A stretch of DNA of 64,000 bases from Vicinamibacterales bacterium (lineage in GTDB: Bacteria; Acidobacteriota; Vicinamibacteria; Vicinamibacterales; UBA823): positions 788,558 to 852,557 of the forward strand of contig CBDANA010000009.1 of assembly GCA_965197385.1 (NCBI GenBank), read 5' to 3'. Position 1 is the stretch's first letter; every line of letters starts with the position of its first letter. The notes under the pieces are model-generated. The model made no database searches. It worked only from the letters and a program-made list of their open reading frames with translations, and was not told the origin of the DNA. The translations under genes were made by a program, and so were the position numbers. Shown piece by piece: positions 23,964-50,351 of the stretch.

Positions 23964-25266
23964 CTAGCAGGCTACTGAAAAAGTCCATGGAATGGGATCG
24001 ACAGATCGATCCCGGCGTACTCCCATGCTCCCAATATTGCTGAAGGGAGCCACCTCATGCGCGGACACGATGAGCAGACCCATCACATGTTCAGTTACCG
24101 GTCGCCGGAACAGCGCGTGCCGGCCGATCCTCCGCTCCGCGCGGTCCGCGCGCTGACGGATCACGCGCTGAAGACGATGTCGCGCAGGTTCGCCGGCCTG
24201 TACGCCAAGACGGGACGTCCGTCGATCCCGCCTGAGCCATTGTTGCGGGCCCTGTTGCTGCAGGTGCTGTACACGATCCGGAGCGAACGGCTGCTGCTGG
24301 AAGAGCTCAACGACAACCTGCTGTTCCGCTGGTTCGTCGGCTTGCATATGGACGACCCGGTCTGGCATCCCACGACGTTTACCAAGAATCGTGACCGGCT
24401 GCTGGCGGGGGATGGCGCGGCCGCCTTCGTTGATGCGGTCCAGGCCCACGCCCGGGCGGCCGGTCTGCTCTCGGACGAGCATTTCACGGTGGACGGGACG
24501 CAGTTGGAAGCCTGGGCCAGCCTGAAGAGCTTCCGATGCCGGGACGCCGCGCCGCGCGCGCCCCCCGATGACCCCGGGAATCCCACGGTCGACTTCCACG
24601 GCGAGCGGCGGCGCAACGACACGCACCAGTCGACGACTGATCCGGCGGCGATGCTGCATCGGAAGGGCCAAGGGAAGGAGGCGAAGCTGGCGTCTCTGGG
24701 CCACGTGCTGTTGGATAATCGGCAGGGGCTCGTCGCCAACGTCTGTGCGACCCACGCGACGGGGACCGCCGAACGCGAGGCGGCGGCACTGTTGCTGGAG
24801 GCCAGCGCGCCGCCGGGCAGCACGGTCGGAGCAGACAAGGGCTACGATGTGGCGAGCTTCGTCGCCGATGTCCGCGTCCGGGACGTCACGCCCCACGTGG
24901 CGCAGAAGGTCCGCTGGCGGGCGATTGATGGTCGGCCCACCCGGCATGCGGGTTCTCACGTGAGTCAGCGGAAACGAAAACTCGTGGAACAGGTCTTTGG
25001 GTGGAGGCAGACCGTCGGTGGTTTGCGCAAGCTCCGGCCTCGCGGCGTCCCACTCGTCGAGTGGCAGCTCACTTTCGCCGCCACGGCCTATAACTTGGTC
25101 CGCCTGCGGAATCTGGAGGCGACGTGTCCCTGCTCGCCGGCCGCGCGTGTCGCCGGCCCCCTCATCGGGGTCAGCGCACACCCGTGCGCACGGTCGTCGG
25201 GCGGTCGTCACCCGCATGATGCTTAAGAAAACAGCCCGATACCCGGGTTCTTCAGCAGCCTGCTAG
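23964..25266 (+). mobile_element. IS5-family insertion sequence, copy 1 (CTAG at both ends)
   Basis: 1.3 kb. IRs are CTAGCAGGCTACTGAAAAAGTCC and GGGTTCTTCAGCAGCCTGCTAG. Near-identical inverted copy at 49049-50351. Confidence 0.9.
24057..25226 (+). CDS. IS5-family DDE transposase
   Basis: 389 aa. N-terminal DUF772-like [43 protein letters not shown] and a DDE region (VDGTQLEA..., GADKGYD). Confidence 0.9.
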   Translation: MRGHDEQTHHMFSYRSPEQRVPADPPLRAVRALTDHALKTMSRRFAGLYAKTGRPSIPPEPLLRALLLQVLYTIRSERLLLEELNDNLLFRWFVGLHMDDPVWHPTTFTKNRDRLLAGDGAAAFVDAVQAHARAAGLLSDEHFTVDGTQLEAWASLKSFRCRDAAPRAPPDDPGNPTVDFHGERRRNDTHQSTTDPAAMLHRKGQGKEAKLASLGHVLLDNRQGLVANVCATHATGTAEREAAALLLEASAPPGSTVGADKGYDVASFVADVRVRDVTPHVAQKVRWRAIDGRPTRHAGSHVSQRKRKLVEQVFGWRQTVGGLRKLRPRGVPLVEWQLTFAATAYNLVRLRNLEATCPCSPAARVAGPLIGVSAHPCARSSGGRHPHDA

Positions 25267-25367
25267 CGCAGGTCATCGACGACTGGTCCGGCCACGCCTA
25301 CTGCGTCCTGTTCCGACGTCCCGTGACTCCCTGATGGAGTCCATGAGGCCGCCGCGGAGGTGACCGT

Positions 25368-26186
25368 ATGACGACTCGTAACCCTCAACCGACCCCACGT
25401 TTCGATCTGGGAAGCCAACCGGCCGTCAGCCGCCGGGCGTTTCTCAGCCTCGGGGCGGCGTTGACCGGCCCGACGGCACTCACCGCTCGCCGTCGGCCTG
25501 GCGCTGCGCCCGTGCCCAGTGCCGCGCTGCCCGACAGGCAGCCGGATTCTTCCGAGCAGCTTCGCGGTGTGCCGGCCACGCTGCTGTGCGATGCCTTGAC
25601 AAGGCTCGGCTTCGATCGGACGCGCTTCACGCTCTCACGGGAGATCCGCCCCACCGTGCGCACGCCGGGCACGATGATGGGCCCGGCGGTCACGACGAAA
25701 TACGAAACGGGGGCCGACGGAACGCTCGACGACATTCGCCGGTTCGTGTTCGATCCGGTGGACGCGGCGGGACCCGGGGCGGTCTGGGTCATCGAGAGCG
25801 GCACCGACGACGTCGTGAGCATGCTGGGCGAGCTGATCGCGGTGGCCTGCCGTCGGACCGGCCTGGCCGGAATCGTCACCGACGGCGGGTGCCGGGACAT
25901 TGACGCGATTGCCGCCATCGGCCTGCCGCTGTTCTCGAAGGGAACGGTCCTCTACGGTCCGGGCTCAATCATCCGCCCGGTCGCGGCCGACGTGCCGGTG
26001 AGATGCGGTGGCGTGGAGGTGCGGCCGGGGGACCTCGTGGCCGCGGATGCCGATGGCGCGCTCGTCGTGCCTCGCGAGGCGGTCGGCGACGTGGCGACGC
26101 TGGTCGCCGAGCTGCGGGCTAAGGAGGATCGGACGCGAGCGGCGCTCGCCCGCGGCGATACGCTACGAGACGCGTACGTGTTCTAG
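25368..26186 (+). CDS. RraA-family (RraA / HMG-aldolase-like) protein with an N-terminal Tat-type signal
   Basis: SRRAFLSLGAALTG twin-arginine signal followed by an RraA-like core (GELIAVACRRTGLAGIVTDGGCRD, VRPGDLVAADADGALVVP). Confidence 0.65.
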   Translation: MTTRNPQPTPRFDLGSQPAVSRRAFLSLGAALTGPTALTARRRPGAAPVPSAALPDRQPDSSEQLRGVPATLLCDALTRLGFDRTRFTLSREIRPTVRTPGTMMGPAVTTKYETGADGTLDDIRRFVFDPVDAAGPGAVWVIESGTDDVVSMLGELIAVACRRTGLAGIVTDGGCRDIDAIAAIGLPLFSKGTVLYGPGSIIRPVAADVPVRCGGVEVRPGDLVAADADGALVVPREAVGDVATLVAELRAKEDRTRAALARGDTLRDAYVF

Positions 26187-26222
26187 TGTCCGGTGGTGAA
26201 GGTCTCGACACATCGAGGGCTA
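26183..26222. repeat. solo/short copy of the CTAG repeat head between convergent genes
   Basis: CTAGTGTCCGGTGGTGAAGGTCTCGACACATCGAGGGCTA. Its two ends coincide with the TAG stops of the RraA-like gene (+) and the SSF gene (-). Confidence 0.4.
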
Positions 26223-27749
26223 CCAGAAGAACGCGTACAGCATTGCGGTCGCCGCCAGAATGGCGACCCCCAGCGCGGGACCTAAGGGATCGGGCGTCAG
26301 GTCGATCTGCGGCGTCCCTAGCCCCAGCCGCCAGGCAACGGCCAGGGGTTGCACCGCCGTCACGCAGCCCATCAGCACGACCAGGGTGACGATCGTGATC
26401 GCCATGTGGTTCAGGAACGCCACCTGCGGCAGCGACCACAGCAGGATCCCGTAGAGCGGCAGCCCCGCCACCAGCGCCGCCGTGGCCGCGGCGGCAGGCG
26501 CCCGCCGCACCACCAGGCTCACCAGGAAGACTGCGACGACCCCCGGCGAGATGAAGCCCCACACCAGCTGGATGTACTGAAACACACCCCCGAAGCGACG
26601 GGGCAACGGGGCGAGCAGGCAGCCGAGGACGACCAGCACAGCGGTCGTCACGCGGCCCACCCGCACGAGATCCGCGGGCTGCGCGTTCGGCCGCAACCAT
26701 CGCTTGACGACGTCCATCGTGAAGACCGTCGACGCCGAATTCAACATCGAATCCAGGCTGCTCATCACGGCGCCGAACAGCGCGGCGAACAGCACGCCAC
26801 GCAGTCCGGCTGGCAGGAGTCGGCTGATCAGCACCGGATACGCCTGATCGCCGTGCTCGATCTCGGCGCCGAACAACTGGAACGCCACGATGCCAGGAAC
26901 CACGACGATAAACGGGACCACCAGTTTCAGGCTGGCCGCGAACAGAATGCCGCGCTGTCCATCGGCCAGTGTCCGCGCCGCCAGCGTCCGCTGAGTGATG
27001 AACTGATTGAATCCCCAATAGAACACGTTCGGAATCTAGATGCCGAGCAGCAACGCGGTCCAGGGCAGGTCGGGATGGTCGGCAGGCAACACCAGGTGCA
27101 GCTTCGCCTCGTTTGCCGAAAGAAACGCCCTCAGCCCCCCCACGTGCCCGAGGCCCACGACGGCGACGATGGCGCCCCCCACGAGCAGCGCCGTCCCCTG
27201 GAGCAGATCCGACCAGACGACCGCCTTCAGACCCCCGTAGACGGTGTACGCCCCGGCCAGCGCCCCGATCAGCCAGATCCCGGCCACAACGTCGAGGCCG
27301 AAGATCGCTTCCAGGCCAATCGCGCCGGAGTACAGCACGGCCGCAATGGCCACGCCGACGTGCGCCGCCAGCATGTACCCCGCCATGATCGTTCGCGGTA
27401 CCGGCCCATACCGATGCTCGAGAAATTCCGGCATCGTATAGATGCCGACGCGAAGAAACTGAGGCAGCAGCACCAGCGCAACGAACACCAGCGTCACGGC
27501 CGCGACCCACTCGTAGCTCGCGACGGCGAGACCGGCCTGGCCGAATCCGGAACCCGCCATACCGACGAAATGTTCGGTCGAGATATTCGAGGCAATCAGC
27601 GAGATCCCGATGAGCGGCCAGGTCAACCCGCGGCCGGCCAGGAAGTAGTCTTCATCGGTTCGTTCGTGTCGGGAGGCATACAGGGACACCCCGATCACCG
27701 CAGCCAGAAAGAGCACGAATGACACGCCGTCCCACAGCGTCCACGTCAT
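26220..27749 (-). pseudogene. sodium:solute symporter (SSF) with an in-frame TAG
   Basis: ORFs 27036..27749 and 26220..27026 share a frame: ...LPWTALLLGI-TAG-IPNVFYWGFNQFITQRTLAA. Polytopic membrane protein with SSF signature regions. Confidence 0.8.
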
Positions 27750-27759
27750 CGGGGCGTCC

Positions 27760-29067
27760 TCACGCCCTGGCCGGGGCCGTGGCGCGCCAGCACGGCGTCA
27801 CGAGCCAGGCGTTCGTCAGCAACCGGCCGATCACCAGCGCCACCGCCGCGCTCATGACACCGACCGCATCGAACGTGTGAATACCGATCCAGAGGATCGC
27901 GACAATCGTGGCCAACTCCGCGCTCGACGCCCAGGTGATGGCCGCGGGGCGTCGGCTCGTCACCAGGATGGACCGCTGGAATGAGAGCCAGACCGACAGC
28001 GCCGGAAGCGGCAGCATGATCTGGAGCGGCGGCACGGCGAACGCCGTCAAGGCGGCCGACAATCCCGAGACGCCTTGAAACCACACGACCGCAAGCGGGC
28101 TATAGGCGATCAGCCCCAGGCCAACCGATGTGGCGACCGCCAGCACGATGGCAAAGGTTCGCAGCGGTCGGTACTGCTCCATCCCGGGCCCGAGCAACAC
28201 GATGGCCGCCTCTTGAAACGACAGGCCGAGGCATCGGAAGACGAACGCCAGTCCGGTGATGACCGGCAGCACCGCCAGCGACTCGACGGCCATCCGGCTC
28301 TGGCCCATGAAGAACGTGACGAGCGGTTGGATTCCCATCGCCAGTATCGACGTGAGGGCGAGCGGCACGTAGAACGTGGCCGTCTGCCGCATCGTCAGGC
28401 GCCGCCGTGGCGGCCCCGGCCCGTCGTCCAGCGCCCGCACGGCGCGACGCGCCATCCGTCCGGCAGCTAGCGCCTCGGCCACGACGCCGGCCGACAACGC
28501 GATCGCTCCGATGTGGGCCCCGTGCAGGGAGGTGACGGCGGCCAGGCCGGCCCCCGTTCCTGCCATAGCCGTCAGGCGCAGCGTCGTGCCGTACGCCACG
28601 CGACCCGTGAGCCCATGCCGAATCAGCAGTCCCTGCTTGAAGCGCCGATACCCGATGGCCGCCGGCCACGGCAGCAGCCAGACGAGCGCGCCGTGGGTCA
28701 GTTCCCGAACCTCCGCCGGGAGGGCCAGCAGGCCGCTCAGGCCGTCGAAGACCGGCGGCAGCACGACGATGCCCATGAGCACGGTCATCCCGGCGCTGAG
28801 ACCGTAGCCGAAGCGACGGAGCGTCAGGTAACTGGCCCGATCCTCCACCAGCGCCAACGCCGCGCTCAGCAACATGACGACAGGGGATTCCAGAATGAGG
28901 CCGAACGCAAACGCCACTCCGTAGGCGGCCAGGTTCTCGCGCGCGTCCGGCAGGCGAGCGATGATCGCGGCAATCAGCGGCCCCTCGACCGCCATCATCA
29001 ACCACGTGCCGGCAAGCGGAATCCAGAACCGGACAATGGCGGGAACGGTGAGCGGCGCTCGAGGCAT
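27760..29067 (-). CDS. polytopic membrane protein, MOP/MATE-superfamily-like
   Basis: 435 aa with about 12 predicted TM helices. Only a weak family call from overall architecture. Confidence 0.45.
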   Translation of the reverse strand: MPRAPLTVPAIVRFWIPLAGTWLMMAVEGPLIAAIIARLPDARENLAAYGVAFAFGLILESPVVMLLSAALALVEDRASYLTLRRFGYGLSAGMTVLMGIVVLPPVFDGLSGLLALPAEVRELTHGALVWLLPWPAAIGYRRFKQGLLIRHGLTGRVAYGTTLRLTAMAGTGAGLAAVTSLHGAHIGAIALSAGVVAEALAAGRMARRAVRALDDGPGPPRRRLTMRQTATFYVPLALTSILAMGIQPLVTFFMGQSRMAVESLAVLPVITGLAFVFRCLGLSFQEAAIVLLGPGMEQYRPLRTFAIVLAVATSVGLGLIAYSPLAVVWFQGVSGLSAALTAFAVPPLQIMLPLPALSVWLSFQRSILVTSRRPAAITWASSAELATIVAILWIGIHTFDAVGVMSAAVALVIGRLLTNAWLVTPCWRATAPARA

Positions 29068-29101
29068 CTCTGGCAGTGTCTGGGTCTGTTATGATCGGCG
29101 C

Positions 29102-29452
29102 GTGCCTGCGGCGTTGACCCCGCTCTGTTCCATCGCCGAGCTCGAGGCGGCGCTCGCCGAATCGGCCGAGAAGCCCCTGCTGCTCTTCAAGCACTCCAAG
29201 CTCTGCGGTGCCAGCTGTATGGCGCTGGACGAGCTGCAGCGGCACCTCGAGGAAGCCCCGGACACCGTCCGCTATCGGCTCATCACCATCCAAACTAGTC
29301 GAGACGTGTCGAACGAAGCGACCGTTCGGCTCGGTGTGCCGCACAGCAGTCCTCAGGCGATTCTCATTCGCAACGGCGCGGCGGTCTGGACCGCGACGCA
29401 TTTGCAGATCACGGCTGAGGTCCTCTCTGCCGCGACCTCCCGCCGTAGCTGA
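29102..29452 (+). CDS. ytxJ: YtxJ-like monothiol thioredoxin-fold protein (bacillithiol-system type)
   Basis: LLLFKHSKLCGASCMA...VSNEATVRLGVPHSSPQAILIRNGAAVWTATHLQIT matches the YtxJ/DUF2847 pattern. GTG start chosen. Confidence 0.65.
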   Translation: MPAALTPLCSIAELEAALAESAEKPLLLFKHSKLCGASCMALDELQRHLEEAPDTVRYRLITIQTSRDVSNEATVRLGVPHSSPQAILIRNGAAVWTATHLQITAEVLSAATSRRS

Positions 29453-29588
29453 AACCGCTGGATCTGTTGACCACACGTCACGCACCCGACCGCGATGGCG
29501 GTCGATCTCGAACAGAAAGAGCACGACCGAAGCCAGCCTGCGGGGGTGCCGAACAGATCATTGTAGCTGATTCGTATGCGCGAACTGG

Positions 29589-29786
29589 CTAGCAGCCCGT
29601 GGTGAACGTCCCGCGTCGCATCGAAGCCCCTCTAAGGTTAAAACCGAAGCCGCGGTCGACCTGAGGAAGGTGCGAGGAGGAAGCATACCGGCAGTATTCG
29701 ACCCCGCTGATCAGAAGCCGAGCGCCGTCCCTGGCGGGATGCATCGGCGGGGGAATGCGGCCGTATTTATGACAAGGGCCACTAAG
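29589..29786. mobile_element. MITE-like element, copy C
   Basis: Left TIR CTAGCAGCCCGTGGTGAACGTCC, degenerate right end ...GACAAGGGCCACTAAG. Internal blocks are shared with copies B and F (…GAGGAGGAAGCATACCGGCAGTAT…, GGGATGCATCGGCGGGGGAATGCGGCC). Confidence 0.6.
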
Positions 29787-29822
29787 ACAGGGTGGACGCG
29801 GCGCGCCAGACGGAGCGCTCGC

Positions 29823-30212
29823 TCAGTCCGCGCAGGCAAACTGGGTGACGTCGATTGTGCCGGTGAGGAGCGCCGCCGCCGGCACCTCCGACAGCAGAAT
29901 CTGATCGCCGCCGACGCGGTCGGCGTCGGCGAGACGTGCCCAGTATTGCTGGGGTGCCGGCCTGAAGAGTCGACGCAGCGCGTCGGCCGCCACCGCCGCC
30001 TGCACTTGATCCCTGATCGTGTCGAACAGGTCGGCGACCGCCCGATCGCGCGACCGGCCGGTGGTGACGAAGTCCATTTCCAGGCAGTGGGCCACCGGCT
30101 GACTGTCCTTCGTGTAGACCAACACGGTGAGCAAGGCACTGCGGCCATGTCCCCCCCTTTGGCTCCAGGCGAAGGCCCACGCGGGCTCTCTAGAGGTATC
30201 GACTGGCTGCAC
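29823..30212 (-). CDS. hypothetical protein (possible HicB-like fold)
   Basis: 129 aa. LTVLVYTKDSQPVAHCLEMDFVTTGRSRDRAVADLFDTIRDQV resembles HicB-type antitoxin N-domains. No partner toxin is seen. Confidence 0.35.
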   Translation of the reverse strand: MQPVDTSREPAWAFAWSQRGGHGRSALLTVLVYTKDSQPVAHCLEMDFVTTGRSRDRAVADLFDTIRDQVQAAVAADALRRLFRPAPQQYWARLADADRVGGDQILLSEVPAAALLTGTIDVTQFACAD

Positions 30213-30280
30213 CGAGGCTATAGTCGATTGCCGCTCGTATCACCCCCGGGTGGTAGACTCGTCTCGCGCTCACACCGCCC

Positions 30281-31834: not shown

Positions 31835-32011
31835 CTCGTGTCCTGTCCCAGTCGTTGGCAATATATCTGCCTGGCGGGGCTCCCGGCTTCAGCGGCGCTG
31901 GGCGTTGTCCACGATGGGTCACACATTCCCGATGGGCTCCCGGGTCGCGCCTTGCCAGCCTGGCGCCGCACTCCGGGATAGATGCCGCGAATCACTGGGA
32001 CAGGACACGAG
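31835..32011. repeat. 177-bp element bounded by a perfect 18-bp inverted repeat
   Basis: CTCGTGTCCTGTCCCAGT (31835-31852) is the exact reverse complement of ACTGGGACAGGACACGAG (31994-32011). It begins one nt after the upstream stop codon. Confidence 0.6.
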
Positions 32012-32078
32012 CACCCCGTCCAAGCCTTCCCGCGGGCCACGTTGCCACGCCGTCCGCTCCCCAGATAGACTGCTACCG

Positions 32079-32775: not shown

Positions 32776-34212
<1,437 letters not shown>

Positions 34213-35726: not shown

Positions 35727-35794
35727 GTCAGCCGCCCGTCGTGAACGTCGCGCATCGCCCCGAGGCGTCACGTCGGGTTCTCACCACGGGCTGC
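35727..35794. repeat. short inverted pair of the CTAG-family repeat head (REPIN-like hairpin), copy E
   Basis: GTCAGCCGCCCGTCGTGAACGTC ... GTTCTCACCACGGGCTGC form complementary arms between convergent genes. The right arm encodes the last codons and the stop of rnc. Confidence 0.6.
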
Positions 35795-36743
35795 CCCCGC
35801 GTCGTAGTCGCTGCAGCGCCAGGGCGGCGGCGTGCTGCTCCGCCTCTTTCTTGCTGCGGCCCTTCGCCGTCGCAACCACCTCCTGGCCGACCGTCACGCC
35901 GATCTCGAAGATCTTCGCATGGTCCGGGCCACGTTCGCCGATCACGTGGTACGCCGGCAGGGGCTGCACGTGGGCCTGCGCCCACTCCTGCAGCGCCGAC
36001 TTGGCATCGGCATCGAATCCGGCCGGGCGCCGGCCCATCTGGACCTCGCCTAGGCACTCGAGGAATTCCCGTTCGATGAATGCCCGGGCCGCGTCGATAC
36101 CGCCATCCAGGTAGATCGCGGCGATCACCGCTTCATAGGCGTCGGCCAGCAACCCGGACTTCGACCGCCCCCCAGAGCGCTCCTCACCCTTACCGAGCAC
36201 CAGGTGCGCCCCCAGCCCCAGCGCACGCGCACGCTCGGAAAGCGTGACCGCCGACACGAGGGTCGCCTTCAGCTTCGACTTGCCGCCTTCGTCCTGGTCC
36301 GGGCATTCGCGGTACAGCAGATCGGCGATGACGAAGCCCAGCACGGCATCTCCGAGAAACTCCATCGACTCGTTGTCGACGACACCACCGCTCGGATCCT
36401 CGTGCACCCGCGACCGATGCGTCAGCGCGTCCTCCAGCACCCCCCGGTTCGTGAAGCGATAGCCGAGCGCTGCCTCGAGACGCGCCTCGTCAGCCGGCGG
36501 CCCGTCGCCCGCACCGGCGGCGGCTCGTGACGCGTCGAGAATCTCGCGCGCCTGCGCCACGTCACCAGCCGCAACCATGACGAGTACCGTCAACTGTGGA
36601 TCCCCGCGCAGTGAGGCCAACCGTCCGAGCCGGTCGGTCGAGATGACCGCCTGGATGCCGTGACTGCGCAGCAGCGACTGCACCACGCTCGCCTCGCCTT
36701 CGGAGGCGGTCGCCAACGCGATGGCCAGGTCGTCCGTGCTCAC
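35781..36743 (-). CDS. rnc: ribonuclease III with an ~90-aa N-terminal extension
   Basis: RNase III signature NESMEFLGDAVLG and a C-terminal dsRBD (DAKSALQEWAQ..GPDHAKIF..GRSKKEAEQHAA). The GTG start overlaps the upstream TGA (GTGA). Confidence 0.85.
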   Translation of the reverse strand: MSTDDLAIALATASEGEASVVQSLLRSHGIQAVISTDRLGRLASLRGDPQLTVLVMVAAGDVAQAREILDASRAAAGAGDGPPADEARLEAALGYRFTNRGVLEDALTHRSRVHEDPSGGVVDNESMEFLGDAVLGFVIADLLYRECPDQDEGGKSKLKATLVSAVTLSERARALGLGAHLVLGKGEERSGGRSKSGLLADAYEAVIAAIYLDGGIDAARAFIEREFLECLGEVQMGRRPAGFDADAKSALQEWAQAHVQPLPAYHVIGERGPDHAKIFEIGVTVGQEVVATAKGRSKKEAEQHAAALALQRLRRGGSPW

Positions 36744-38426: not shown

Positions 38427-39587
38427 GTGACAGAGACCCCCGGAACACGGTTCCGCACCCGATGCGTTCATGCCGGACAGGCGCCAGACCCGACGACCGG
38501 CACCATCATCACCCCGATCTATCAAACGTCCACCTATGTCCAGGACGGCTTGGGCCGGCACAAGGGCTACGAGTACTCGCGCACGCAGAACCCCACGCGC
38601 GAGGCGGCCGAAGCAAACATCGCGGCACTCGAGGAGGGCAAGGCCGGCATCGCGTTCGCGTCCGGGATGGCGGCAATCGACGCCGTGTCTACGCTGCTCG
38701 AGTCCGGCGACCATGTCGTCGTCACGGAGAACACCTATGGCGGGACGTTCAGGCTGTTCGAGCAGGTCCTCCGCCGCTACCGCCTGGACTTCACCTACGT
38801 CGATACGAGCGTGCCGGATCGGATCGCCGCGGCCCTCAGGCCGGAGACGCGCATGATCTTCGTCGAGACGCCGGCCAACCCCCTGCTGGACCTCACCGAC
38901 CTGGCCGGCCTAGCCGAACTGGCGCGACCCCGCAACATCACCGTCGTCGTCGACAACACCTTCGCCAGCCCGTGCGTGCAAGAGCCGCTGCTACTCGGCG
39001 CTGATCTCGTCGTGCACAGCACGACGAAATATCTGAACGGCCATGCGGACAGCGTGGGTGGGATGGTGGTGGCGCAGCGAGACGCACAGATCGAATGGCT
39101 GAGGTTCGTCCAGAACGCCGCCGGCGCCATCCTTAGCCCATTCGATGCCTGGCTGCTGCTGCGCGGCACGAAGACCCTCGCGCTTCGAATGGCGGCGCAC
39201 AACGCCGCCGGACTAGCACTGGCCGAGTTCCTCACCGGCCACAGCAAGGTGGCGCGAGTGTTCTACCCCGGCTTGCCGGACCACCCACACCATGCGCTGG
39301 CGGTTCGCCAGATGCGCGGGTTCGGCGGCATGGTGGCGTTCGACCTAGGATCGCTCGACGCGGCCCGAACGGTGCTCGAAGGCGTGGCCCTGCTATCGCT
39401 CGCCGAGAGCCTGGGCGGCGTTGAAAGCCTGATCAGCCACCCCGCGACGATGACCCATGCGTCGGTACCGGCCGAGCAGCGGCGCGCGCGCGGCATCACC
39501 GACGGCCTCGTCCGGATCTCGGCCGGCATCGAAGACGTGGACGACCTGAAAGACGATCTCGGCCAGGCCCTTGATCGAATCCGGTGA
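38427..39587 (+). CDS. Cys/Met-metabolism PLP enzyme (cystathionine gamma-synthase/gamma-lyase family)
   Basis: Motifs YEYSRTQNPTR, FASGMAAI and HSTTKYLNGHADSVGG (PLP lysine). Confidence 0.85.
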   Translation: MTETPGTRFRTRCVHAGQAPDPTTGTIITPIYQTSTYVQDGLGRHKGYEYSRTQNPTREAAEANIAALEEGKAGIAFASGMAAIDAVSTLLESGDHVVVTENTYGGTFRLFEQVLRRYRLDFTYVDTSVPDRIAAALRPETRMIFVETPANPLLDLTDLAGLAELARPRNITVVVDNTFASPCVQEPLLLGADLVVHSTTKYLNGHADSVGGMVVAQRDAQIEWLRFVQNAAGAILSPFDAWLLLRGTKTLALRMAAHNAAGLALAEFLTGHSKVARVFYPGLPDHPHHALAVRQMRGFGGMVAFDLGSLDAARTVLEGVALLSLAESLGGVESLISHPATMTHASVPAEQRRARGITDGLVRISAGIEDVDDLKDDLGQALDRIR

Positions 39588-40633: not shown

Positions 40634-40999
40634 ATGCCGAAAATCGAGCTCCCGCGCGCTCCGCGCCGCAACGCCAGGCGAAAGCCGGCCCCGCCCAAGC
40701 GCCGTCGCACGCTTCGTCTGCTCCTCTCCTTCGTGACCCTTGTGCTGCTGGCCGACGCCGTCATCGGCGAGCGCGGGTTCCTCGAGACGCTTCGGGCTCG
40801 GCGTCACTCGACCGAGCTAGCGGCGTCGATCGCCGAGCGTCGACAGGAGAACGCGCGGCTCCGCGAGCAGGCCAGGCAGCTCCGCGAGGACCCGCGGGTC
40901 ATCGAGGCGATCGCCCGCCGCGAGCTGGGCCTCATCCGCCCGGGTGAGGTGCTCTTCATCATCAAGGACGTCGAGCCAAGATCCCGCCGCTTCGAGTAG
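40634..40999 (+). CDS. ftsB: septum formation initiator FtsB/DivIC family
   Basis: Single TM helix, a coiled coil (ERRQENARLREQARQLRED) and RVIEAIARRELGLIRPGEVLF. Confidence 0.75.
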   Translation: MPKIELPRAPRRNARRKPAPPKRRRTLRLLLSFVTLVLLADAVIGERGFLETLRARRHSTELAASIAERRQENARLREQARQLREDPRVIEAIARRELGLIRPGEVLFIIKDVEPRSRRFE

Positions 41000-41097: not shown

Positions 41098-41174
<77 letters not shown>

Positions 41175-41256: not shown

Positions 41257-42306
41257 TGAATCGTACCGGGTTTCTCGGAGACCGAATTCGTTGAATCAGG
41301 CCACCTCAGCCTGCTCATAGTACTGCGCCTCGAACTCTGCTGGTGGAATGTCCCCGAGCGGCCCCAACAGTCGTCGTGTGTTGAACCAGTCCACCCACGT
41401 CAAGGTGGCGAACTCCACGGCCTCGAGGGTGCGCCACGAGCCCTTCCGTCGAATCACCTCCGTCTTGTACAAGCCGATCACCGATTCGGCGAGGGCATTG
41501 TCATAGGCATCGCCTTGGCTGCCGACCGACGGCGCGATGCCGGCGTCCACGAGGCGATTCGTGTACCGCATCGAGAGATATTGCGACCCGGCATCACTGT
41601 GATGTACGAGGCCGGTGAGGGCGTCGCCCCGGCGGGCGTAGATCGCCTGCTCCAACGCATCCAGCACAAAGTCCGTGCGCATGGAGGCCGACACCCGCCA
41701 GCCCACAATGCGGCGCGCAAACACGTCGATGACGACCGCGACGTAGACAAAGCCGCCCCAGGTTGCGACGTACGTGAAATCGGAGACCCAGAGCTGATTC
41801 GGACGGGTGGCCACGAATCGGCGGTCAACGAGGTCCACCGGGCGACCGCCCTCACCTGCGGGGGTCGTGGTGACCCAGGCCCGGCCCCGGACGGCCCCGG
41901 CAAGGCCCATCGCGCGCATCAGGCGCGCCACGGTGCAGCGCGCCACGCGGACGCCGTCCCGCCGCAGCTGCTTCCAGACTTTCCGGGGGCCGTAGACCTG
42001 CTGGTGCGCGTCATAGACCCGCTGAATCTCGACGCGGAGCTGATCGTCGCGCTGCGCCCGTGCGGACCGGCGCGTCGGATGTGTCCGCTGGTGCCGATGG
42101 CGATGATACGTCGACGGGGCGATCGGCAGCACGGCGCAGATCGGCTCGACCCCGAACACGGCGCGATGGTCGGCGATGAACTGGACCATCGTGGCTACGT
42201 CCTCCGGCGGTCGAGCTCCGCCTGGGCGAAATACGCGAACGCTTTCCGCAGGATCTCATTCGCCCGCTTCAGCTCACGGACCTCGCGCTCCAGCTCCTTC
42301 AACCGC
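41257..42306 (-). mobile_element. IS3-family element, 5'-truncated
   Basis: orfB is intact, but only the last ~35 codons of orfA remain ([35 protein letters not shown]). No left IR is present. The right end is placed at TGAATCG... and is approximate. Confidence 0.75.
41296..42189 (-). CDS. IS3-family transposase OrfB (integrase core)
   Basis: Motifs PNQLWVSDFTYV, HHSDAGSQY and NALAESVIGLYKTE are the typical rve/DDE core. Confidence 0.9.
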   Translation of the reverse strand: MVQFIADHRAVFGVEPICAVLPIAPSTYHRHRHQRTHPTRRSARAQRDDQLRVEIQRVYDAHQQVYGPRKVWKQLRRDGVRVARCTVARLMRAMGLAGAVRGRAWVTTTPAGEGGRPVDLVDRRFVATRPNQLWVSDFTYVATWGGFVYVAVVIDVFARRIVGWRVSASMRTDFVLDALEQAIYARRGDALTGLVHHSDAGSQYLSMRYTNRLVDAGIAPSVGSQGDAYDNALAESVIGLYKTEVIRRKGSWRTLEAVEFATLTWVDWFNTRRLLGPLGDIPPAEFEAQYYEQAEVA

Positions 42307-42543
42307 ACGTGTCAGCGGCACGCTGGATCCTGGCACGACTCGCGCAGCGGAGCTGGTGATCTACGTTGCGAGAGCGAGGCCGATGCGACCGCGGCTAACA
42401 GCGATCAGCGCTCAGCTCGAGCCGCGCTTCATCGTGGAGCGCGTTCGGGCTGGTACTGGGAATGACACCGAGCTCCACGCGGCCCTGGCCGCGGCGGCAT
42501 CGCTTCCTCACACCGCCCGCAGCGCGATGATCTGGTCTACCGG

Positions 42544-43143
42544 GTGGCGCTGCGCCCTTCGGCGGCGTCAGGACCGAGTCTCTTTCGAATCGATCTCGGC
42601 GGGCTTCCGCGGTGGGCGGTCGCCTCGGTGCCTGCCGCCACCGCCGCTTGGCCTTCGGCGACCCTCTGCGCCGCCCCGCTCTCAGAGGACGAGCTGTTTG
42701 GCGACCGGAACCAGGCAGCGCCGATCAGGCTCGGAAGCCGAAGCCTGTTTGGAGATGGGCGGCACTCCCCCGAACGTGTGGCCACACCGGACGAGTTCAG
42801 GTGGACCGCTGCACCCGAAGCCGAATTACTGGTTCCCCTCGTGCGTTCCGGGCCGGTTCAGCTGCGGGTTCGTGCGAGGCCCGGTGCGCCAGCTGACGAA
42901 TCTGGGAGGACCCTCGCGGTGCGCGTGAACGAACATCAGCTGCCGGCTTTCCCGCTGCGTCGCCGAGTGTCGCAGTACGAGTGGATCATCCCGGCCGCCG
43001 CTCTGCGAGCTGGCGTCAACCAGATATTCCTCCAGTCGTCCCAGCTGACCGTGCCGGCGAGGGGGCGCGACAGTCGCGACGGGAGACGCTTGGGCGTCAG
43101 GGTCTCAGGCGTGACCCTGGAGCTGCTGAACGGCGCGCGATGA
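42544..43143 (+). pseudogene. probable 5'-truncated remnant of a larger gene (C-terminal domain only)
   Basis: Only the C-terminal ~130 aa look protein-like (PDEFRWTAAPEAELLVPL..LAVRVNEHQLPAFPL..YEWIIPAAALRAGVNQIFL). The upstream 240 nt is frame-broken and abuts the truncated IS3. Confidence 0.3.
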
Positions 43144-43156
43144 CTGATCTTCGTCT

Positions 43157-44371: not shown

Positions 44372-44445
44372 GCGTTGCGGTGCTTCCTCACCCGGTCGTC
44401 CGAGTACACAGACTATAATTCCTCATCCCGTTACCCTTCCACACG

Positions 44446-45075
44446 GTGATACTCGAAGGCTGGACGTTCCTGCTTGTCGGCGTCGTCGTCGGGCTAGCCG
44501 GAGGCTTCTCGCCCGGCCCCCTCACGACGCTCGTCATCGTGCAGAGCCTTCGCTACGGCCTGCGCGAAGGACTGAAAGTCGCCATCGCGCCGGCCCTCAC
44601 CGATGCGTCGATCGCGGTCGCGGCCCTTCTGGCCGTCGGTCAACTGCGTGACGCCGCACCCGTGCTGGGCGCGATCGCGCTCGCCGGCGCCGCCTTTCTG
44701 GGCTACCTCGCGTACGAGAGCCTGACCACTCCGCCACCCGCGGCCGTCTCGACCGGTGAGCTCCCTGGGTCGCTTCGGAAGGGGATCCTGACCAACCTCG
44801 CAAACCCGAACCCCTACCTCTTCTGGTTCATGATCGGCGCCCCGACCGTGCTCGAGGCCTCCCGCCTCAATGGACTCTACGTGGTGCTGTTTCTCGTCGG
44901 GCTGTACACCTGTCTGATCGGCGCCAAGGTCCTCTTCGCGGCGCTGGCCGCTCGTGGACGCTCGTTTCTGGCCGGCGCAGCGTACCGCCGGACGCTCCGC
45001 GTTCTCGGCATCGCGCTACTGGTCTTCGCCCTGAAATTCGCCTTCGACGGACTGAGCTATCTGGGCCTGCGATGA
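44446..45075 (+). CDS. LysE/RhtB-family amino-acid exporter
   Basis: GFSPGPLTTLVI near the N-terminus, LTNLANPNPYLFW, and 6 TM helices. Confidence 0.8.
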   Translation: MILEGWTFLLVGVVVGLAGGFSPGPLTTLVIVQSLRYGLREGLKVAIAPALTDASIAVAALLAVGQLRDAAPVLGAIALAGAAFLGYLAYESLTTPPPAAVSTGELPGSLRKGILTNLANPNPYLFWFMIGAPTVLEASRLNGLYVVLFLVGLYTCLIGAKVLFAALAARGRSFLAGAAYRRTLRVLGIALLVFALKFAFDGLSYLGLR

Positions 45076-45226
45076 CGATGACGAGAAAGGCTCGTTCCGG
45101 ATGCCTCAGCAGCGTCGTTGTCCATTTGAACGCGGCTCCCGGATGGGCTAAGGCGTATTGACCCGTGACGGTTCGTCACGTAGACGCCAGACGCCGCGGC
45201 GGGACCTGACTGGAGTGGCTGTGACT

Positions 45227-45787
45227 ATGCGTAGACACGCGCGTGTGATTGCGCTGTTCGTCGGTTGCCTCCTGCTACTGATCACCAGGTCCGCCTCCAG
45301 TCAACCGCTGCCGATGACCTTTGCCGAGATGACCTCTGAGGCGAACCTGATCGTCCGTAGATACGTGGCCGACCAGCGCGCCGAGTGGATTACCGCAGAC
45401 GACGGTACGGGGATCGTGACCTTCGTCGTGTTCCGGATCGAGCGGACCCTGAAAGGCGACGCCGGCATCCAGAACCCGCTGGAATTCCTCGGCGACACCA
45501 TTGGCGACACGCGCATCGAGGTCTCCCACGTGCCGACGTTCGAGGTCGGCCACCGGGCCGTGTTGTTCTTGAACACCACACAGCGATTCATCAGTCCGGT
45601 CGTGGGGAGTGAACAGGGCCTGTTCCCAATCGTGGAACGCGCCGATGGCGACTTCGTGATCAGCCACAACGGTGCAGCCTTTTCTGCAGTCAGGCAACTC
45701 GGCGTGCCGCAAGCGGCGGAGGCGGGACCGCTGTCCCTCGCCGTCTTCGAGTCCGAGATCGTACGCGTCGTACACGAGCTGCGATGA
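45227..45787 (+). CDS. hypothetical secreted protein
   Basis: Signal peptide MRRHARVIALFVGCLLLLITRSASS. No family recognised. The start is moved to the signal peptide within track ORF 45158..45787. Confidence 0.4.
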   Translation: MRRHARVIALFVGCLLLLITRSASSQPLPMTFAEMTSEANLIVRRYVADQRAEWITADDGTGIVTFVVFRIERTLKGDAGIQNPLEFLGDTIGDTRIEVSHVPTFEVGHRAVLFLNTTQRFISPVVGSEQGLFPIVERADGDFVISHNGAAFSAVRQLGVPQAAEAGPLSLAVFESEIVRVVHELR

Positions 45788-45926
45788 CCTGGAGGATCTG
45801 GATCCTCGCAGTCGTACTCGTCACCGCCGTGACCGGCGCGACGTATTCCGTCTACGCGTTCACGTTCACCGGGGCCCGCTGGCCGAATGGCAAGGCACCT
45901 ACATGCTGACGCTCGCCGTCAGCTAG
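45784..45926 (+). pseudogene. N-terminal fragment of a secreted protein, cut at the CTAG junction
   Basis: ATG overlaps the upstream TGA. MTWRIWILAVVLVTAVTGATYSVYAFTFTGARWPNG..., then a frame slip, and the reading frame ends in the CTAG at 45923-45926. Confidence 0.35.
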
Positions 45927-46451
45927 CAGGACGACGGACACGTCGTGCCGGCTCGAGAAGCCGATCTCGCTGTCGAGACGCTCGAGGAGATGCTTCCGGT
46001 TGAACGCTCCGGTCAGCTCGTCACGCACCGCCGCCTGGTACATCAGACGCTGAAATTCCCCGTCGACGTCGTCATGGAAGCCGAACTTGAGCACGGTCGC
46101 CGGGCCGAGCTGGAGCCGGTCGCCGTCGAACAACTGGGCGTTGGTGACCGACGTGCCGTTGAGGTACGTCCCGTTGGTCGACCCGAGATCCTGGACGAAG
46201 AACCGATCGCCCCGCTTCTCGAATCGCGCGTGATCGCGAGACACCTCCTTGTCGGTGACGCTCACCCGGACACCCGGGGCACGGCCGACGACGTCGTCGC
46301 CCTGCAGCTTGTACATCTTACCGACGTTCGGGCCGGCCATGACGATGACGTATGCCGCATATTTTCGCGTCCCACGGGCCAACTCCTCGATCAGCTGGCG
46401 ATTGCCGATGATCGTCTTGTCAGGCGAGGTGTCGTCGTCGTCCTCAGGCAC
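45852..46451 (-). pseudogene. FHA-domain diguanylate cyclase, 3'-truncated
   Basis: FHA domain (GRAPGVRVSVTDKEVSRDHARF..LGSTNGTYLNG), then the start of GGDEF (DELTGAFNRKHLLERLDSE...HDVSVVLL). This stops exactly at CTAG 45923-45926; the remaining 24 codons are unrelated. Confidence 0.7.
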
Positions 46452-46510
46452 GAGTTGAATAGTACACCGCGGCGGGCTCCGCGCATAGCGCTCCGCGCGG
46501 GCTGCTAGAC

Positions 46511-48037
46511 TCAGCCCAGGCGCCGCCAGCGGCGGCCGTCCTTAGCCAGGAGTACGTCGGCGTCTGCCGGGCCCTGGGACCCGGCCGCGTAGTTCGGGAA
46601 GTCGCGGGCTGGCAGCGCCCCCCACACATCGAGAATCGGCGTCACGATGCGCCACCCCGCCTCGACGTTGTCCGCTCGCTGAAACAGTGTGGCGTCCCCC
46701 TTCATCGCGTCGTAGAGCAGCGTCTCGTAGCCGGTGGATCGACGAGAGCCGAAATAGTCGGCGTAGCTGAAGTCCATGTCGACGCCGCCGATCTGGAGGA
46801 CCGCCGACGGCACCTTCGCACCAAAATGCAACGAGATCGCCTCGTCGGGCTGAATCCGCATGACCAGGCGGTTCGGGGCCAGCTGGTCCACGGCGGTCTT
46901 CCGGAACATCATGAACGGTGCCTGCTTGAACTGGATAGCCACCTCGGTTACTCGCGCCGCGAGGCGCTTGCCGGTGCGCAGGTAGAACGGCACGCCGGCC
47001 CAGCGCCAGTTGTCCACCATCAGCTTCAAGGCGACGTAGGTGTCGGTGTTCGATTCGGGATCGACCTGGGTCTCCTCGCGGTACCCGACGACCTGCGCCC
47101 CGTTGGCCCCCGTGCCCCGTCCGTACTGCCCACGCACCGTCTGCGTGAGGACCTCCTCTGGCCCGATCGGCTGCAGCGCCTCGATCACCTTGCCTTTCTC
47201 GTCGCGCACCGCCTCCGCCTCGAACGACGAGGGCGGCTCCATGGCCGTCAACGCCAGCAGCTGGAACAGGTGGTTCGGCACCATGTCGCGCAGGGCGCCC
47301 GCCCCCTCGTAGTAGCGGCCCCGACCCTCCACGCCGAGCTGCTCCGCCACGGTGATCTGCACGTGATCGACATAGCGCCGGTTCCAGATCGGCTCAAAAA
47401 TGCCGTTGGCGAAGCGAAAGACGAGGATGTTCTGGACGGTGTCTTTCCCCAGATAGTGGTCAATCCGGTAGATCTGCTGTTCCTGCAGGACGCCGCGCAG
47501 CGCGCCGTTCAGGGCCCGCGCCGATGCGAGATCCTGTCCGAACGGCTTCTCGATGACGACCCGCCGCCATCCCGAATCCGACTCGCTCGCCAAACCGGCC
47601 GCGCCGAGGCCGGTGACGATCGACGCGAAAAACGTCGGCGGCGTGGCGAGATAGAACAGCCGATTGCCACCTGTTTTGCGCTCCGCGTCGATGCCGTCGA
47701 GCCGCTGCGCCAGGCGCGTCAAAGCCTCCATGTGCCCCAGCTTGCCCTGGACGTAGTGCGCCCTGGCCGCCAGCCACTCCCACAGGTCGCTATCGAGGTC
47801 GCCGTCGATGTGCTGCGCGACCTGCCCGCGCAGGTGCGTCCGGAACGCCTCGTCGTCGTAGTCCCGTCCACCGAACCCGACGATGGCGAATGCATCCGAC
47901 AGCAGCTTGTACCGCGCCAGGTGGTAGAGGGCCGGCACCAGCTTCCGCATCGTCAGATCACCGCCGGCGCCGAAGATCACCATCGTATTCGGTCCGGCCG
48001 GCGTCGCGTCGCGTTCGCGTGCAGTCTCAGTCGCCAT
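46511..48037 (-). CDS. zwf: glucose-6-phosphate dehydrogenase
   Basis: Motifs [28 protein letters not shown]. Confidence 0.9.
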
Positions 48038-48042
48038 GGGTC

Positions 48043-49032
48043 CTACTTCTTGGCCCCGCCGTCCGGCTCGACGTGGCCGCCGAATTTCTCGCGCATCGCC
48101 GACAGCACCTTCTCGGCGAACGTATGGTCCTGCCGGGAGCGAAACCGCGCGTAGAGCGCCGCCGAGAGGACGTCGGCCGGCACCGCCTCCTCGACCGCCG
48201 TCATCACCGTCCAGCGGCCTTCACCCGAATCCTGTACCACGCCCTCGTAGCGGTCCAGCGCCGGGTCCTCGACGAGCGCCGCCGCCGTCAAGTCGAGCAA
48301 CCAGGATGACACGACGCTGCCCCGGCGCCACACCTCGGCAACGTCGGCCAGATTCAAGTCGTAGCGTAGCTCGGCCGGCCGGTCCGACGCCCCGGCGCTG
48401 CGCATGATGTCGAACCCCTCCGCATACGCCTGCATGAGGCCGTACTCGATGCCGTTGTGCACCATCTTCACGAAGTGGCCGGCCCCGACCGGACCGCAGT
48501 GCACGTAGCCCTGCTCGGCCGTGCCGGCCAGCGCCTCGCGGCCCGGCGTCCGGGCGATGTCGCCGCGCCCCGGCGACAAGGTCTTGAAGATCGGATCGAG
48601 CCGCTCGACCGATTCGACGTCGCCGCCGATCATCATTGAGTAGCCACGCTCGAGGCCCCAGACGCCTCCACTGGTGCCGACGTCGACGTACTTCACGCCC
48701 TGCTTCGACAGATCGCCGGCTCGCCGCACGTCATCCTTGAAATAGCTGTTCCCGCCGTCAATGACCACGTCACCCGACTGCAGAGCACCACCCAGCGCAG
48801 CGACTGTGCGATCGGTGATCTCGCCCGCCGGCACCATCACCCAGACAGCGCGTGGGGGCTGTAGCCGCTTCATCAGATCCTCTATCGACTGAGCGCCGGT
48901 CGCCCCCTCGCCGGCCATGCCTTCGACCGCTCGCGAATCGATGTCGAAGACGACGCACTCGTGGCCGCCGGCCATGAGCCGCCGGACCATGTTCGACCCC
49001 ATCCGTCCCAATCCGACCATGCCTAGCTGCAT
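48043..49032 (-). CDS. gnd: 6-phosphogluconate dehydrogenase (decarboxylating, short form)
   Basis: Motifs [40 protein letters not shown]. Confidence 0.85.
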
Positions 49033-49048
49033 CTCGACTCCCGAGAAA

Positions 49049-50351
49049 CTAGCAGGCTGCTGAAGAACCCGGGTATCGGGCTGTTTTCTTAAGCATCATG
49101 CGGGTAACGACCGCCCGACGACCGTGCGCACGGGTGTGCGCTGACCCCGATGAGGGGGCCGGCGACACGCGCGGCCGGCGAGCAGGGACACGTCGCCTCC
49201 AGATTCCGCAGGCGGACCAAGTTATAGGCCGTGGCGGCGAAAGTGAGCTGCCACTCGACGAGTGGGACGCCGCGAGGCCGGAGCTTGCGCAAACCACCGA
49301 CGGTCTGCCTCCACCCAAAGACCTGTTCCACGAGTTTTCGTTTCCGCTGACTCACGTGAGAACCCGCATGCCGGGTGGGCCGACCATCAATCGCCCGCCA
49401 GCGGACCTTCTGCGCCACGTGGGGCGTGACGTCCCGGACGCGGACATCGGCGACGAAGCTCGCCACATCGTAGCCCTTGTCTGCTCCGACCGTGCTGCCC
49501 GGCGGCGCGCTGGCCTCCAGCAACAGTGCCGCCGCCTCGCGTTCGGCGGTCCCCGTCGCGTGGGTCGCACAGACGTTGGCGACGAGCCCCTGCCGATTAT
49601 CCAACAGCACGTGGCCCAGAGACGCCAGCTTCGCCTCCTTCCCTTGGCCCTTCCGATGCAGCATCGCCGCCGGATCAGTCGTCGACTGGTGCGTGTCGTT
49701 GCGCCGCCGCTCGCCGTGGAAGTCGACCGTGGGATTCCCGGGGTCATCGGGGGGCGCGCGCGGCGCGGCGTCCCGGCATCGGAAGCTCTTCAGGCTGGCC
49801 CAGGCTTCCAACTGCGTCCCGTCCACCGTGAAATGCTCGTCCGAGAGCAGACCGGCCGCCCGGGCGTGGGCCTGGACCGCATCAACGAAGGCGGCCGCGC
49901 CATCCCCCGCCAGCAGCCGGTCACGATTCTTGGTAAACGTCGTGGGATGCCAGACCGGGTCGTCCATATGCAAGCCGACGAACCAGCGGAACAGCAGGTT
50001 GTCGTTGAGCTCTTCCAGCAGCAGCCGTTCGCTCCGGATCGTGTACAGCACCTGCAGCAACAGGGCCCGCAACAATGGCTCAGGCGGGATCGACGGACGT
50101 CCCGTCTTGGCGTACAGGCCGGCGAACCTGCGCGACATCGTCTTCAGCGCGTGATCCGTCAGCGCGCGGACCGCGCGGAGCGGAGGATCGGCCGGCACGC
50201 GCTGTTCCGGCGACCGGTAACTGAACATGTGATGGGTCTGCTCATCGTGTCCGCGCATGAGGTGGCTCCCTTCAGCAATATTGGGAGCATGGGAGTACGC
50301 CGGGATCGATCTGTCGATCCCATTCCATGGACTTTTTCAGCAGCCTGCTAG
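49049..50351 (-). mobile_element. IS5-family insertion sequence, copy 2 (inverted relative to copy 1)
   Basis: Same 1.3-kb element with CTAG at both ends. I saw only two differences from copy 1: one in the IR (GCTGCTG vs GCTACTG) and one His/Tyr codon. Confidence 0.9.
49089..50258 (-). CDS. IS5-family DDE transposase
   Basis: 389 aa, identical to 24057..25226 except ...GGRYPHDA vs ...GGRHPHDA. Confidence 0.9.

Follow-up and report, generated by a model that had tools for sequence, protein, structure and literature searches.

Two near-identical insertion sequence (IS) copies in opposite orientation enclose about 23.8 kb of chromosome in a Vicinamibacterales bacterium, which raises the question of whether the enclosed DNA arrived together with the two copies, has been turned round between them, can still be flipped, or is native DNA on either side of which one element happened to insert twice. 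The whole stretch analysed, hereafter the window, is 64,000 nucleotides long, and its comparison with related strains favours the last reading with a probability of about 0.9: two recent simple insertions flank a native segment in its ancestral orientation, and the arrangement is neither a composite transposon nor the product of an inversion.

A repeat search reported a single such inverted pair, with arms of 1303 nt at 23964-25266 and 49049-50351 and 23,782 nt between them; these coordinates take in one CTAG per side, the element proper being 1295 bp. Sequence identity between the copies stops abruptly beyond these limits, and a 1.3-kb repeat at 99.85% identity cannot have originated by chance. 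Copy A occupies 23968-25262 on the plus strand and copy B the inverted interval 49053-50347 on the minus strand. Base-by-base comparison of the two finds exactly two differences in 1295 positions, in agreement with the initial annotation, which had recognised near-identical inverted copies distinguished by one base in the left inverted repeat and one His/Tyr codon. Specifically, position 7 of the left terminal inverted repeat is A in copy A (23974) and G in copy B (50341), and codon 385 of the transposase reads His in copy A (C at 25209) and Tyr in copy B (T at 49106). In the other copies of the clade position 7 is G and position 1242 is T, as in copy B, so that copy B holds the clade-consensus base at both variable positions and copy A the derived bases (A and C); the copy B sequence is thus probably the older of the two.

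The element begins and ends with CAGGCTGCTGAA..., and its terminal inverted repeats, CAGGCTGCTGAA(A/G)AA, match at 12 of 12 end bases and then at 14 of 15 in copy B. In copy A, the left repeat (CAGGCTACTGAAAAA, 23968-23982, plus strand) includes the variant A at position 7, and the right repeat (CAGGCTGCTGAAGAA, read on the minus strand) spans 25248-25262. These repeats coincide with the breakpoints against the empty sites of related strains and hence mark the exact ends of the mobile unit. CTAG flanks each copy on both sides, as had been noticed before, at 23964-23967 and 25263-25266 for copy A and, for copy B, at 49049-49052 on the gnd side and at 50348-50351 on the pgi side, where it includes the TAG stop codon of pgi. 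The empty-site comparison identifies these as target-site duplications, since the occupied sites hold two CTAG motifs and the empty ones a single CTAG.

Copy A lies in the intergenic region common to a divergent cystathionine beta-synthase (CBS) pseudogene (22454-23875, minus strand, with an in-frame TAA at 23228-23230) and an RraA-like aldolase gene (25368-26186, plus strand), its right neighbour. In five relative loci (L081-L085) CBS adjoins the RraA-like gene, and two of them (L081 and L082), 98.7-99.2% identical to the window at the DNA level, run from window position 23967 straight to 25262 with one CTAG (...GGTTCGCGCTAGAGCAGG...) and without the IS, fixing the ends of copy A. Copy B separates pgi (50348-52117, minus strand, encoding the phosphoglucose isomerase part of NF007080) from gnd (48043-49032, minus strand) and zwf (46511-48037, minus strand). 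In relatives pgi is directly upstream of gnd, and in three of them (L086, L088 and L089; 99.2-99.5% identical) the spacer between the two genes is 16 nt and window position 50348 is joined to 49052 across one CTAG (...AAGAGTCTCTAGTTTCTCGGGAGTCGAGATG...). At a fourth locus (L087) the IS is likewise missing and one CTAG remains, with about 12 additional bases ahead of the gnd start, and three others of about 98% identity (L090, L091 and L093) lack the IS and carry an unrelated MITE of ~158 bp at the same CTAG. As L092 duplicates the context of L091, the tally at this site is seven IS-free loci, four with a single CTAG and three with the MITE. The element is therefore polymorphic in presence and absence with precise boundaries, being missing from both sites in strains 98-99.5% identical to the window. 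Both insertions are probably recent, because the copies differ at only 2 of 1295 bases and strains of 99% identity do not have them.

The element itself belongs to the IS5 family, as first proposed: its transposase matches NF033581 (IS5 family transposase) at 246.6 bits against a cut-off of 140, and contains the DUF772 (PF05598, 82.8 bits) and DDE_Tnp_1 (PF01609, 36.9 bits) domains. The 389-codon reading frames, at 24057-25226 (plus strand, His385) in copy A and at 50258-49089 (minus strand, Tyr385, co-directional with pgi, gnd and zwf) in copy B, have their 3' ends facing inward, in line with the earlier description. Like E. coli IS5 and the IS5 group, the element is about 1.2-1.3 kb long, has a single DDE transposase gene, ends in short imperfect inverted repeats and inserts in intergenic or regulatory DNA; it also shares the 4-bp target duplication, which in E. 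coli IS5 occurs at Py-T-A-Pu (YTAR) and is most often CTAG (PMC5493358). It is, however, only distantly related to E. coli IS5 in sequence, its placement coming from NF033581 and the Pfam domains and not from close identity, and it differs in its termini, in its host, a soil bacterium of 67% G+C that is probably an acidobacterium (Acidobacteriota) judging from the best gnd matches, and in the uniform choice of CTAG. Six further insertion sites in the clade (L094, L095, L176, L177/L178, L179 and L180), where relatives have identical or near-identical copies at other loci, are all exactly 1295 bp long and CTAG-flanked, which together with the two sites in the window makes 8/8. In the transposase search of metagenome contigs no match exceeded 74% identity; these relatives are too distant for a fine mutation spectrum and instead gave the family-wide ends: 45 of 80 more distant family members are likewise flanked by CTAG. 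The closest named element found is ISAzs10 of Azospirillum sp. B510, whose product, annotated as 'IS5-like element ISAzs10 family transposase', matches over the full length (99% of the query) but at just 58% amino-acid identity. As this is far under the same-IS level, the element, judged by its transposase, is a new, unnamed IS.

Whether the transposase of the window is itself active is uncertain. The alignment shows no variation at D146 (HFTVDGT), D260 (GADKGYD) and E311 (KLVEQ), which form a candidate catalytic triad, and the reading frame is uninterrupted. Eleven private substitutions nevertheless fall at positions conserved in relatives, nine of them single-step A/C or G/T changes, and they include K318Q, which affects the lysine of the E-x6-K motif, and the loss of the family stop codon 359 (TGA to TGC), which adds a 31-aa tail with respect to the 358-aa relatives. 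The private substitutions, K318Q and the lost stop among them, are the grounds for this uncertainty, and mobilisation in trans is invoked as an alternative to self-mobilisation. The sequence of events that best accounts for the locus is short. The 1,295-bp element, which has a CTAG target, imperfect inverted repeats at its ends and one gene for a DDE transposase, has very probably inserted twice in the lineage of this strain, once in the divergent region between the CBS pseudogene and the RraA-like gene and once in the 16-nt pgi-gnd spacer, exactly at the CTAG that holds the pgi stop codon. Each event was a simple insertion duplicating the 4-bp CTAG, and the opposite orientations are coincidental. 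The transposase that moved the copies may have been their own or, acting in trans, that of a further copy. Lastly, the 1.3-kb inverted repeats could occasionally recombine via RecA, inverting the segment and uncoupling pgi from gnd-zwf.

The orientation of the segment between the copies (25267-49048, about 23.8 kb) cannot be read from the target duplications, because CTAG is palindromic, a point already made in the initial annotation; the comparative data answer the question that it had left. The segment is collinear at both ends with IS-free relatives. It contains purA (32776-34089), rnc (within 35781-36740), a cystathionine gamma-lyase gene (38427-39587), a DivIC/FtsB domain (about 40740-40966) and a tRNA-Met(CAT) (41098-41174) with the initiator features of a C1/A72 mismatch and a GGG/CCC anticodon stem, so that, with zwf and gnd, every gene previously listed as cargo is located there. 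In one strain both ends of the segment (L081 and L088) lie on the same 721-kb contig, on which the RraA-like gene and gnd converge as they do in the window, and CBS and pgi lie beyond them. The segment measures about 37 kb in that strain and about 23.8 kb in the window, which implies other indels in its interior and leaves the orientation unaffected. In more distant genomes, a gnd search of genome contigs (closest match 73% amino-acid identity) finds gnd directly preceded by pgi on its own strand at 16 loci, and followed on that strand by zwf in 13 of the 16. Judged by this gene order, the genes pgi-gnd(-zwf) form a conserved block running in one direction, which an inversion would disrupt. 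The GC skew is negative throughout, at -0.058 in the segment and -0.043 and -0.075 in the flanks; this continuity, which had been proposed as a check, argues against inversion. Gene-strand bias was dropped as an orientation test in favour of GC skew, as the flanks differ in strand preference, and the pairing of CBS with the cystathionine gamma-lyase gene was of no use as a clue, since an inversion would not make them neighbours.

The alternative that survives best, although very unlikely, is an active inversion switch, in which RecA-dependent recombination flips the segment, toggles the coupling of pgi to gnd-zwf and changes the promoter context of CBS and RraA. The repeats are long (1.3 kb), 99.85% identical and inverted, the junctions lie in a divergent promoter region and in an operon spacer, both of them regulatory positions, and IS-mediated chromosomal inversions are well documented, with both arrangements observed in E. 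coli long-term evolution lines (PMC4173774) and in Streptococcus pyogenes (PMC11602124). As in those cases, two inverted near-identical IS copies reside in one replicon; unlike them, the ancestral arrangement alone is seen here, and the copies are private to one strain. All informative relatives show the orientation of the window, and none shows the inverted one. Every close relative recovered is without the IS at both sites, with gene order and orientation as in the window, which speaks against a conserved or selected switch and counts against an inversion; of the two observations that had been named as counting against a switch, a single orientation in all long reads and the same gene order in relatives without the IS, it is the second that the relatives provide. 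The GC-skew continuity weighs against a switch as well, as does the fact that CBS has already become a pseudogene. The two bases private to copy A, at opposite ends of one copy, fit the absence of exchange between the copies, an argument of little power. No promoter-like site emerged from a scan for sigma-70 promoters across the two IS copies and their junctions, and a terminator scan of the same regions found terminator-like hairpins no commoner than in shuffled sequence. The pair is a substrate for homologous recombination (1295 bp with two mismatches), as had been stated, a generic property that holds for any inverted IS pair. Nothing thus suggests a switch, though the pair could still recombine.

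An assembly artefact, either one true IS copy duplicated or a misjoin at the repeat, is less probable still. The relatives are low-coverage long-read metagenome assemblies (contig names end in 5x-19x), and the source of the window may be similar; against this, two bases distinguish the copies, the site of each, exactly empty in relatives, shows a precise CTAG duplication, and all four flanks are collinear with independent assemblies, whereas ancestral synteny at both ends would not result from a misjoin. Intramolecular replicative transposition creates an additional IS copy in inverted orientation and turns round the DNA that separates the two. That the segment has already been inverted, by such an event or by recombination between the copies, would be compatible with the palindromic duplications but has a negligible probability given that both junctions are collinear to the base with IS-free relatives, that the pgi-gnd(-zwf) co-orientation is conserved at the 16 distant loci, that one relative contig has both ends in the relative orientation of the window, and that the sign of the GC skew in the segment is that of the flanks. 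A composite transposon, whose IS-segment-IS unit would have arrived whole, as two inverted copies of one IS bracket DNA in Tn5, Tn10 and Tn903, had already been considered unlikely and is now excluded by synteny: unlike in those transposons, the bracketed DNA is native at the locus, bordered by the same genes, in relatives with neither copy, and each IS has its own CTAG duplication, so the segment did not transpose as a unit, and it consists of core genes with a GC content (0.670) matching that of the flanks (0.673 for the window).

Besides the two insertions, the IS clade displays an unusual substitution pattern. Nearly all its substitutions are A:T->C:G transversions, while the host DNA is dominated by transitions. 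Of the 27-32 differences that separate the window IS from its nearest relatives, 25-27 are A<->C or G<->T, and after polarisation A->C or T->G accounts for 18 of the 19 changes that are private to the window lineage; these are even across codon positions and include the lost stop codon. In the same strains, intergenic DNA shows 122 transitions vs 33 A/C-G/T changes and pseudogenes 21 vs 3, and an IS3 copy has a normal spectrum, as do close pairs among the distant (<=74%) transposase relatives. The transition-dominated intergenic DNA and pseudogenes led to the rejection of a raw host mutational bias hidden by selection, and sequencing error is judged an unlikely source, as there are no indels and identical sequence types recur in independent assemblies. 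A mutational process specific to the IS clade and producing almost only A:T->C:G changes (an 8-oxo-dGTP or MutT-type signature) is a speculative and rather unlikely reading; its possible causes would be transposition-coupled error-prone synthesis, gene conversion between copies with a MutY bias, or a process that targets repeats.

The locus offers a textbook case of two recent IS insertions in the genome of an uncultured soil bacterium, with very little at stake in the arrangement itself. The gain is a cleanly bounded new IS5-family element with eight documented CTAG-flanked sites in its clade, and copy B shows, in a natural setting, how an IS can split a pentose-phosphate operon, here pgi-gnd-zwf. 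The clade-confined spectrum could matter more: if real, it would indicate that the life cycle of the element includes a step of DNA synthesis or repair peculiar to it.

The window contains one long inverted repeat of 1303 nt, recovered by repeat search at 23964-25266 and 49049-50351, outside of which similarity is abruptly lost. These coordinates take in one CTAG per side, and the element proper is 1295 bp, with termini CAGGCTGCTGAA(A/G)AA; repeat comparison places copy A of this IS5-family element at 23968-25262 on the plus strand and copy B at 49053-50347 on the minus strand. Each copy carries the transposase gene as a single long ORF of 389 aa (24057-25226, +, in copy A; 50258-49089, -, in copy B), and the 3' ends of both ORFs point toward the enclosed 23.8-kb segment (25267-49048). 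A base-by-base comparison of the copies reveals 2 differences, namely 23974 A vs 50341 G, which is the seventh base of the left end, and 25209 C vs 49106 T, corresponding to His385/Tyr385. The initial annotation had described the repeat, the two differences, the His/Tyr codon, and the inward 3' ends, and it proved accurate in all details checked. Near relatives of the IS at other loci, which form a clade with the window copies, share copy B's base at both variable positions, as does every clade member other than copy A, indicating that copy A is the carrier of two derived bases.

According to profile searches, copy A is located between a cystathionine-beta-synthase (CBS) gene (22454-23875, -) and an RraA-like aldolase gene (25368-26186, +), hence in a divergent intergenic region. 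Copy B separates pgi (50348-52117, -) from gnd (48043-49032, -), its transposase is co-directional with pgi, gnd, and zwf (46511-48037, -), and the TAG stop codon of pgi is contained in the pgi-side CTAG. At the IS junctions, simple scans for promoters and terminators were uninformative.

Being palindromic, the CTAG duplications are uninformative on whether an inversion of the segment has taken place, as had already been recognized, and the orientation was instead read from relatives. In a gnd scan of species-representative genomes, which returned 80 loci with a closest match of 73% identity, 16/80 loci have a co-directional pgi whose end lies 15-220 nt ahead of gnd, and in 13 of those 16 zwf follows gnd, also on the same strand; pgi/gnd is therefore a conserved co-directional junction that an inversion would destroy. 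Much closer relatives came from protein searches of long-read metagenome assemblies. At the site of copy A, loci L081 and L082 (98.7-99.2% DNA identity to the window) lack the IS and join window position 23967 directly to 25262 with one CTAG (...GGTTCGCGCTAGAGCAGG...). At the site of copy B, L086, L088, and L089 (99.2-99.5% identity) join 50348 directly to 49052, again with one CTAG (...AAGAGTCTCTAGTTTCTCGGGAGTCGAGATG...) and a pgi-gnd spacer of 16 nt; L087 has no IS and keeps one CTAG, and the IS is likewise missing from L090, L091, and L093 (~98% identity; L092 repeats the context of L091). Moreover, a single 721-kb contig includes both L081 and L088; on it, gnd (+, ~329.4 kb) and the RraA-like gene (-, ~366 kb) point toward each other and are flanked on the outside by pgi and CBS, exactly as in the window. 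In the more distant L083-L085 (75-85% DNA identity), CBS still adjoins the RraA-like gene, and the downstream order from purA through rnc is the same as in the window. GC skew keeps the same sign in the left flank (-0.043), the segment (-0.058), and the right flank (-0.075), and it is negative in 91% of the 1-kb windows of the segment.

All these lines agree: the two junctions are ancestral, the segment has not been inverted, and copies A and B are simple insertions, specific to this strain, that each duplicated a 4-bp CTAG, the supported reading being two transposition events into CTAG sites. An inversion of the segment, for which the inverted pair could have served as substrate, finds no support, since the relatives without the IS show the same gene order and orientation at both sites and GC skew is negative throughout. 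The same relative comparisons exclude intramolecular replicative transposition as the origin of the pair. A composite transposon, deemed unlikely in the initial annotation, is now excluded by the empty sites and by the synteny of the collinear relatives.

The segment comprises purA, rnc, the initiator tRNA-Met, a DivIC/FtsB gene, cutA, cystathionine gamma-lyase, zwf, and gnd, together with a truncated IS3-family copy (41257-42306; rve integrase, with an ALIL frameshift pseudoknot at 42115-42237) that adjoins the tRNA-fMet gene (41098-41174) and stops exactly where homology to relatives restarts (42304). L086 and L088 bear ~13 kb of extra genes at the same tRNA-adjacent point, resulting in a segment of ~37 kb vs 23.7 kb; L093 has neither these genes nor the IS3 copy there, and full IS3 copies are present in L081, L087, and L089 at other places and orientations. 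The locus of copy A and the RraA-like gene is bracketed by CBS and a Na+/solute symporter gene, whose reading frames are each broken by a single in-frame stop (TAC to TAA at 23228-23230 and TGG to TAG at 27036-27038, respectively). Both stops are common to L081 and L082 and both genes are intact in L083 and L085, indicating real lineage-specific pseudogenes rather than frameshift errors.

The target choice is consistent across the clade. Six further insertion sites in four assemblies, with copies 97.5-97.9% identical, each of exactly 1295 bp, carry CTAG on both sides (clade copies at 3912-5206 in L094/L095 and 312-1606 in L176-L180), and more distant family members are likewise CTAG-flanked in 45/80 cases. 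These targets match the preference of Escherichia coli IS5, which duplicates Py-T-A-Pu tetranucleotides, CTAG being the most frequent (PMC5493358). The CTAG between pgi and gnd is a repeated insertion target, since in sister strains the very CTAG used by copy B is hit by a ~158-bp MITE unrelated to the IS (L090 9823-9982, likewise in L091/L092; L093 3261-3420), which has terminal repeats ACCCCAGAACTCACTTGTGTTG... and a TA duplication inside that CTAG; a search of the window did not find this MITE. Just before the gnd start, L087 has ~12 extra bases (GGGGGCAAGGCGCG-like; 9972-9997) matching part of the interior of the L090-L093 MITE; they may represent a footprint of excision or, the assembly being 5x, a consensus of mixed strains. 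The window also holds a MITE-like element of 190 bp flanked by CTAG (14698-14887), with partial copies at 6267, 29589, 35727, and 38239; its terminal repeats (CAGCCCGTGGTGAAAGTCC) resemble the IS left end (CAGGCTGCTGAAAAAGTCC), and it probably belongs to the same IS5-family lineage as a non-autonomous relative. In another assembly, the clade member of L179 (312-1606) lies between a 387-aa gene and rnc, inside the equivalent of the 23.8-kb segment (window ~35.7 kb), where the window has a MITE-like remnant only.

Against the NCBIfam model NF033581 'IS5 family transposase', whose cut-off is 140, the transposase ORF reaches 246.6 bits, and it matches DUF772 and DDE_Tnp_1 in Pfam; in a search of a plasmid collection, the closest named element is ISAzs10 of Azospirillum (58% amino-acid identity). 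Soil metagenomes abound in unnamed relatives at 75-95% identity (cluster sizes of 841, 468, and 1423 members at 90% identity), and nearly all of these are 358 aa long. In the window copies, the family TGA stop at codon 359 has become TGC, adding 31 C-terminal residues (25133-25226 and 49089-49182), and the His385/Tyr385 difference thus falls in a non-conserved tail. Copies in a 4.38-Mb relative genome have a premature stop at codon 345 instead of the lost stop. At conserved positions, the window transposase departs from its relatives by 11 private substitutions, one being K318Q within the E-x6-K motif; its activity is therefore uncertain, and mobilization in trans is an alternative for how these copies may have moved.

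The clade also shows a distinctive mutation spectrum, in which nearly all substitutions are A:T→C:G transversions. Of the 27 differences between the window IS and L094, 26 exchange A with C or G with T and one is a transition; A↔T and C↔G changes are absent from all four of the clade's sequence types. When changes are polarized by majority, A→C or T→G accounts for 18/19 of those private to the window lineage and 6/6 of those private to the L094 type. The variable sites look neutral, being evenly spread over codon positions (9, 12, and 11). In the same strains, transitions dominate every class of host DNA, with transitions vs A/C-G/T changes numbering 114 vs 31 at codon position 3, 122 vs 33 in intergenic DNA, and 21 vs 3 in pseudogenes; ~70% of changes are transitions in host intergenic, pseudogene, and coding DNA and in the IS3 copy, whose spectrum is normal, as is that of closely similar pairs among more distant family members in Illumina metagenomes (622 transitions vs 226). 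The IS differs from its flanks with p = 4e-15 (Fisher test). Sequencing error is argued against by the lack of indels and by the recurrence of identical types in independent assemblies (L179 = L180, L176 = L177). Changes of the A:T→C:G kind are classically associated with 8-oxo-dGTP or MutT (PMC3556519); passage through a mutator host, transposition-coupled synthesis, or MutY-biased conversion among copies are candidate causes of what is a curious anomaly worth a separate look.

Lastly, the data examined give no sign of inversion above background frequency, and there is no conserved switch, since all close relatives recovered lack the IS at the two sites. A 1.3-kb inverted pair could nonetheless recombine, as documented for IS pairs elsewhere (PMC4173774, PMC11602124), and an inversion at this pair would part pgi from gnd-zwf.
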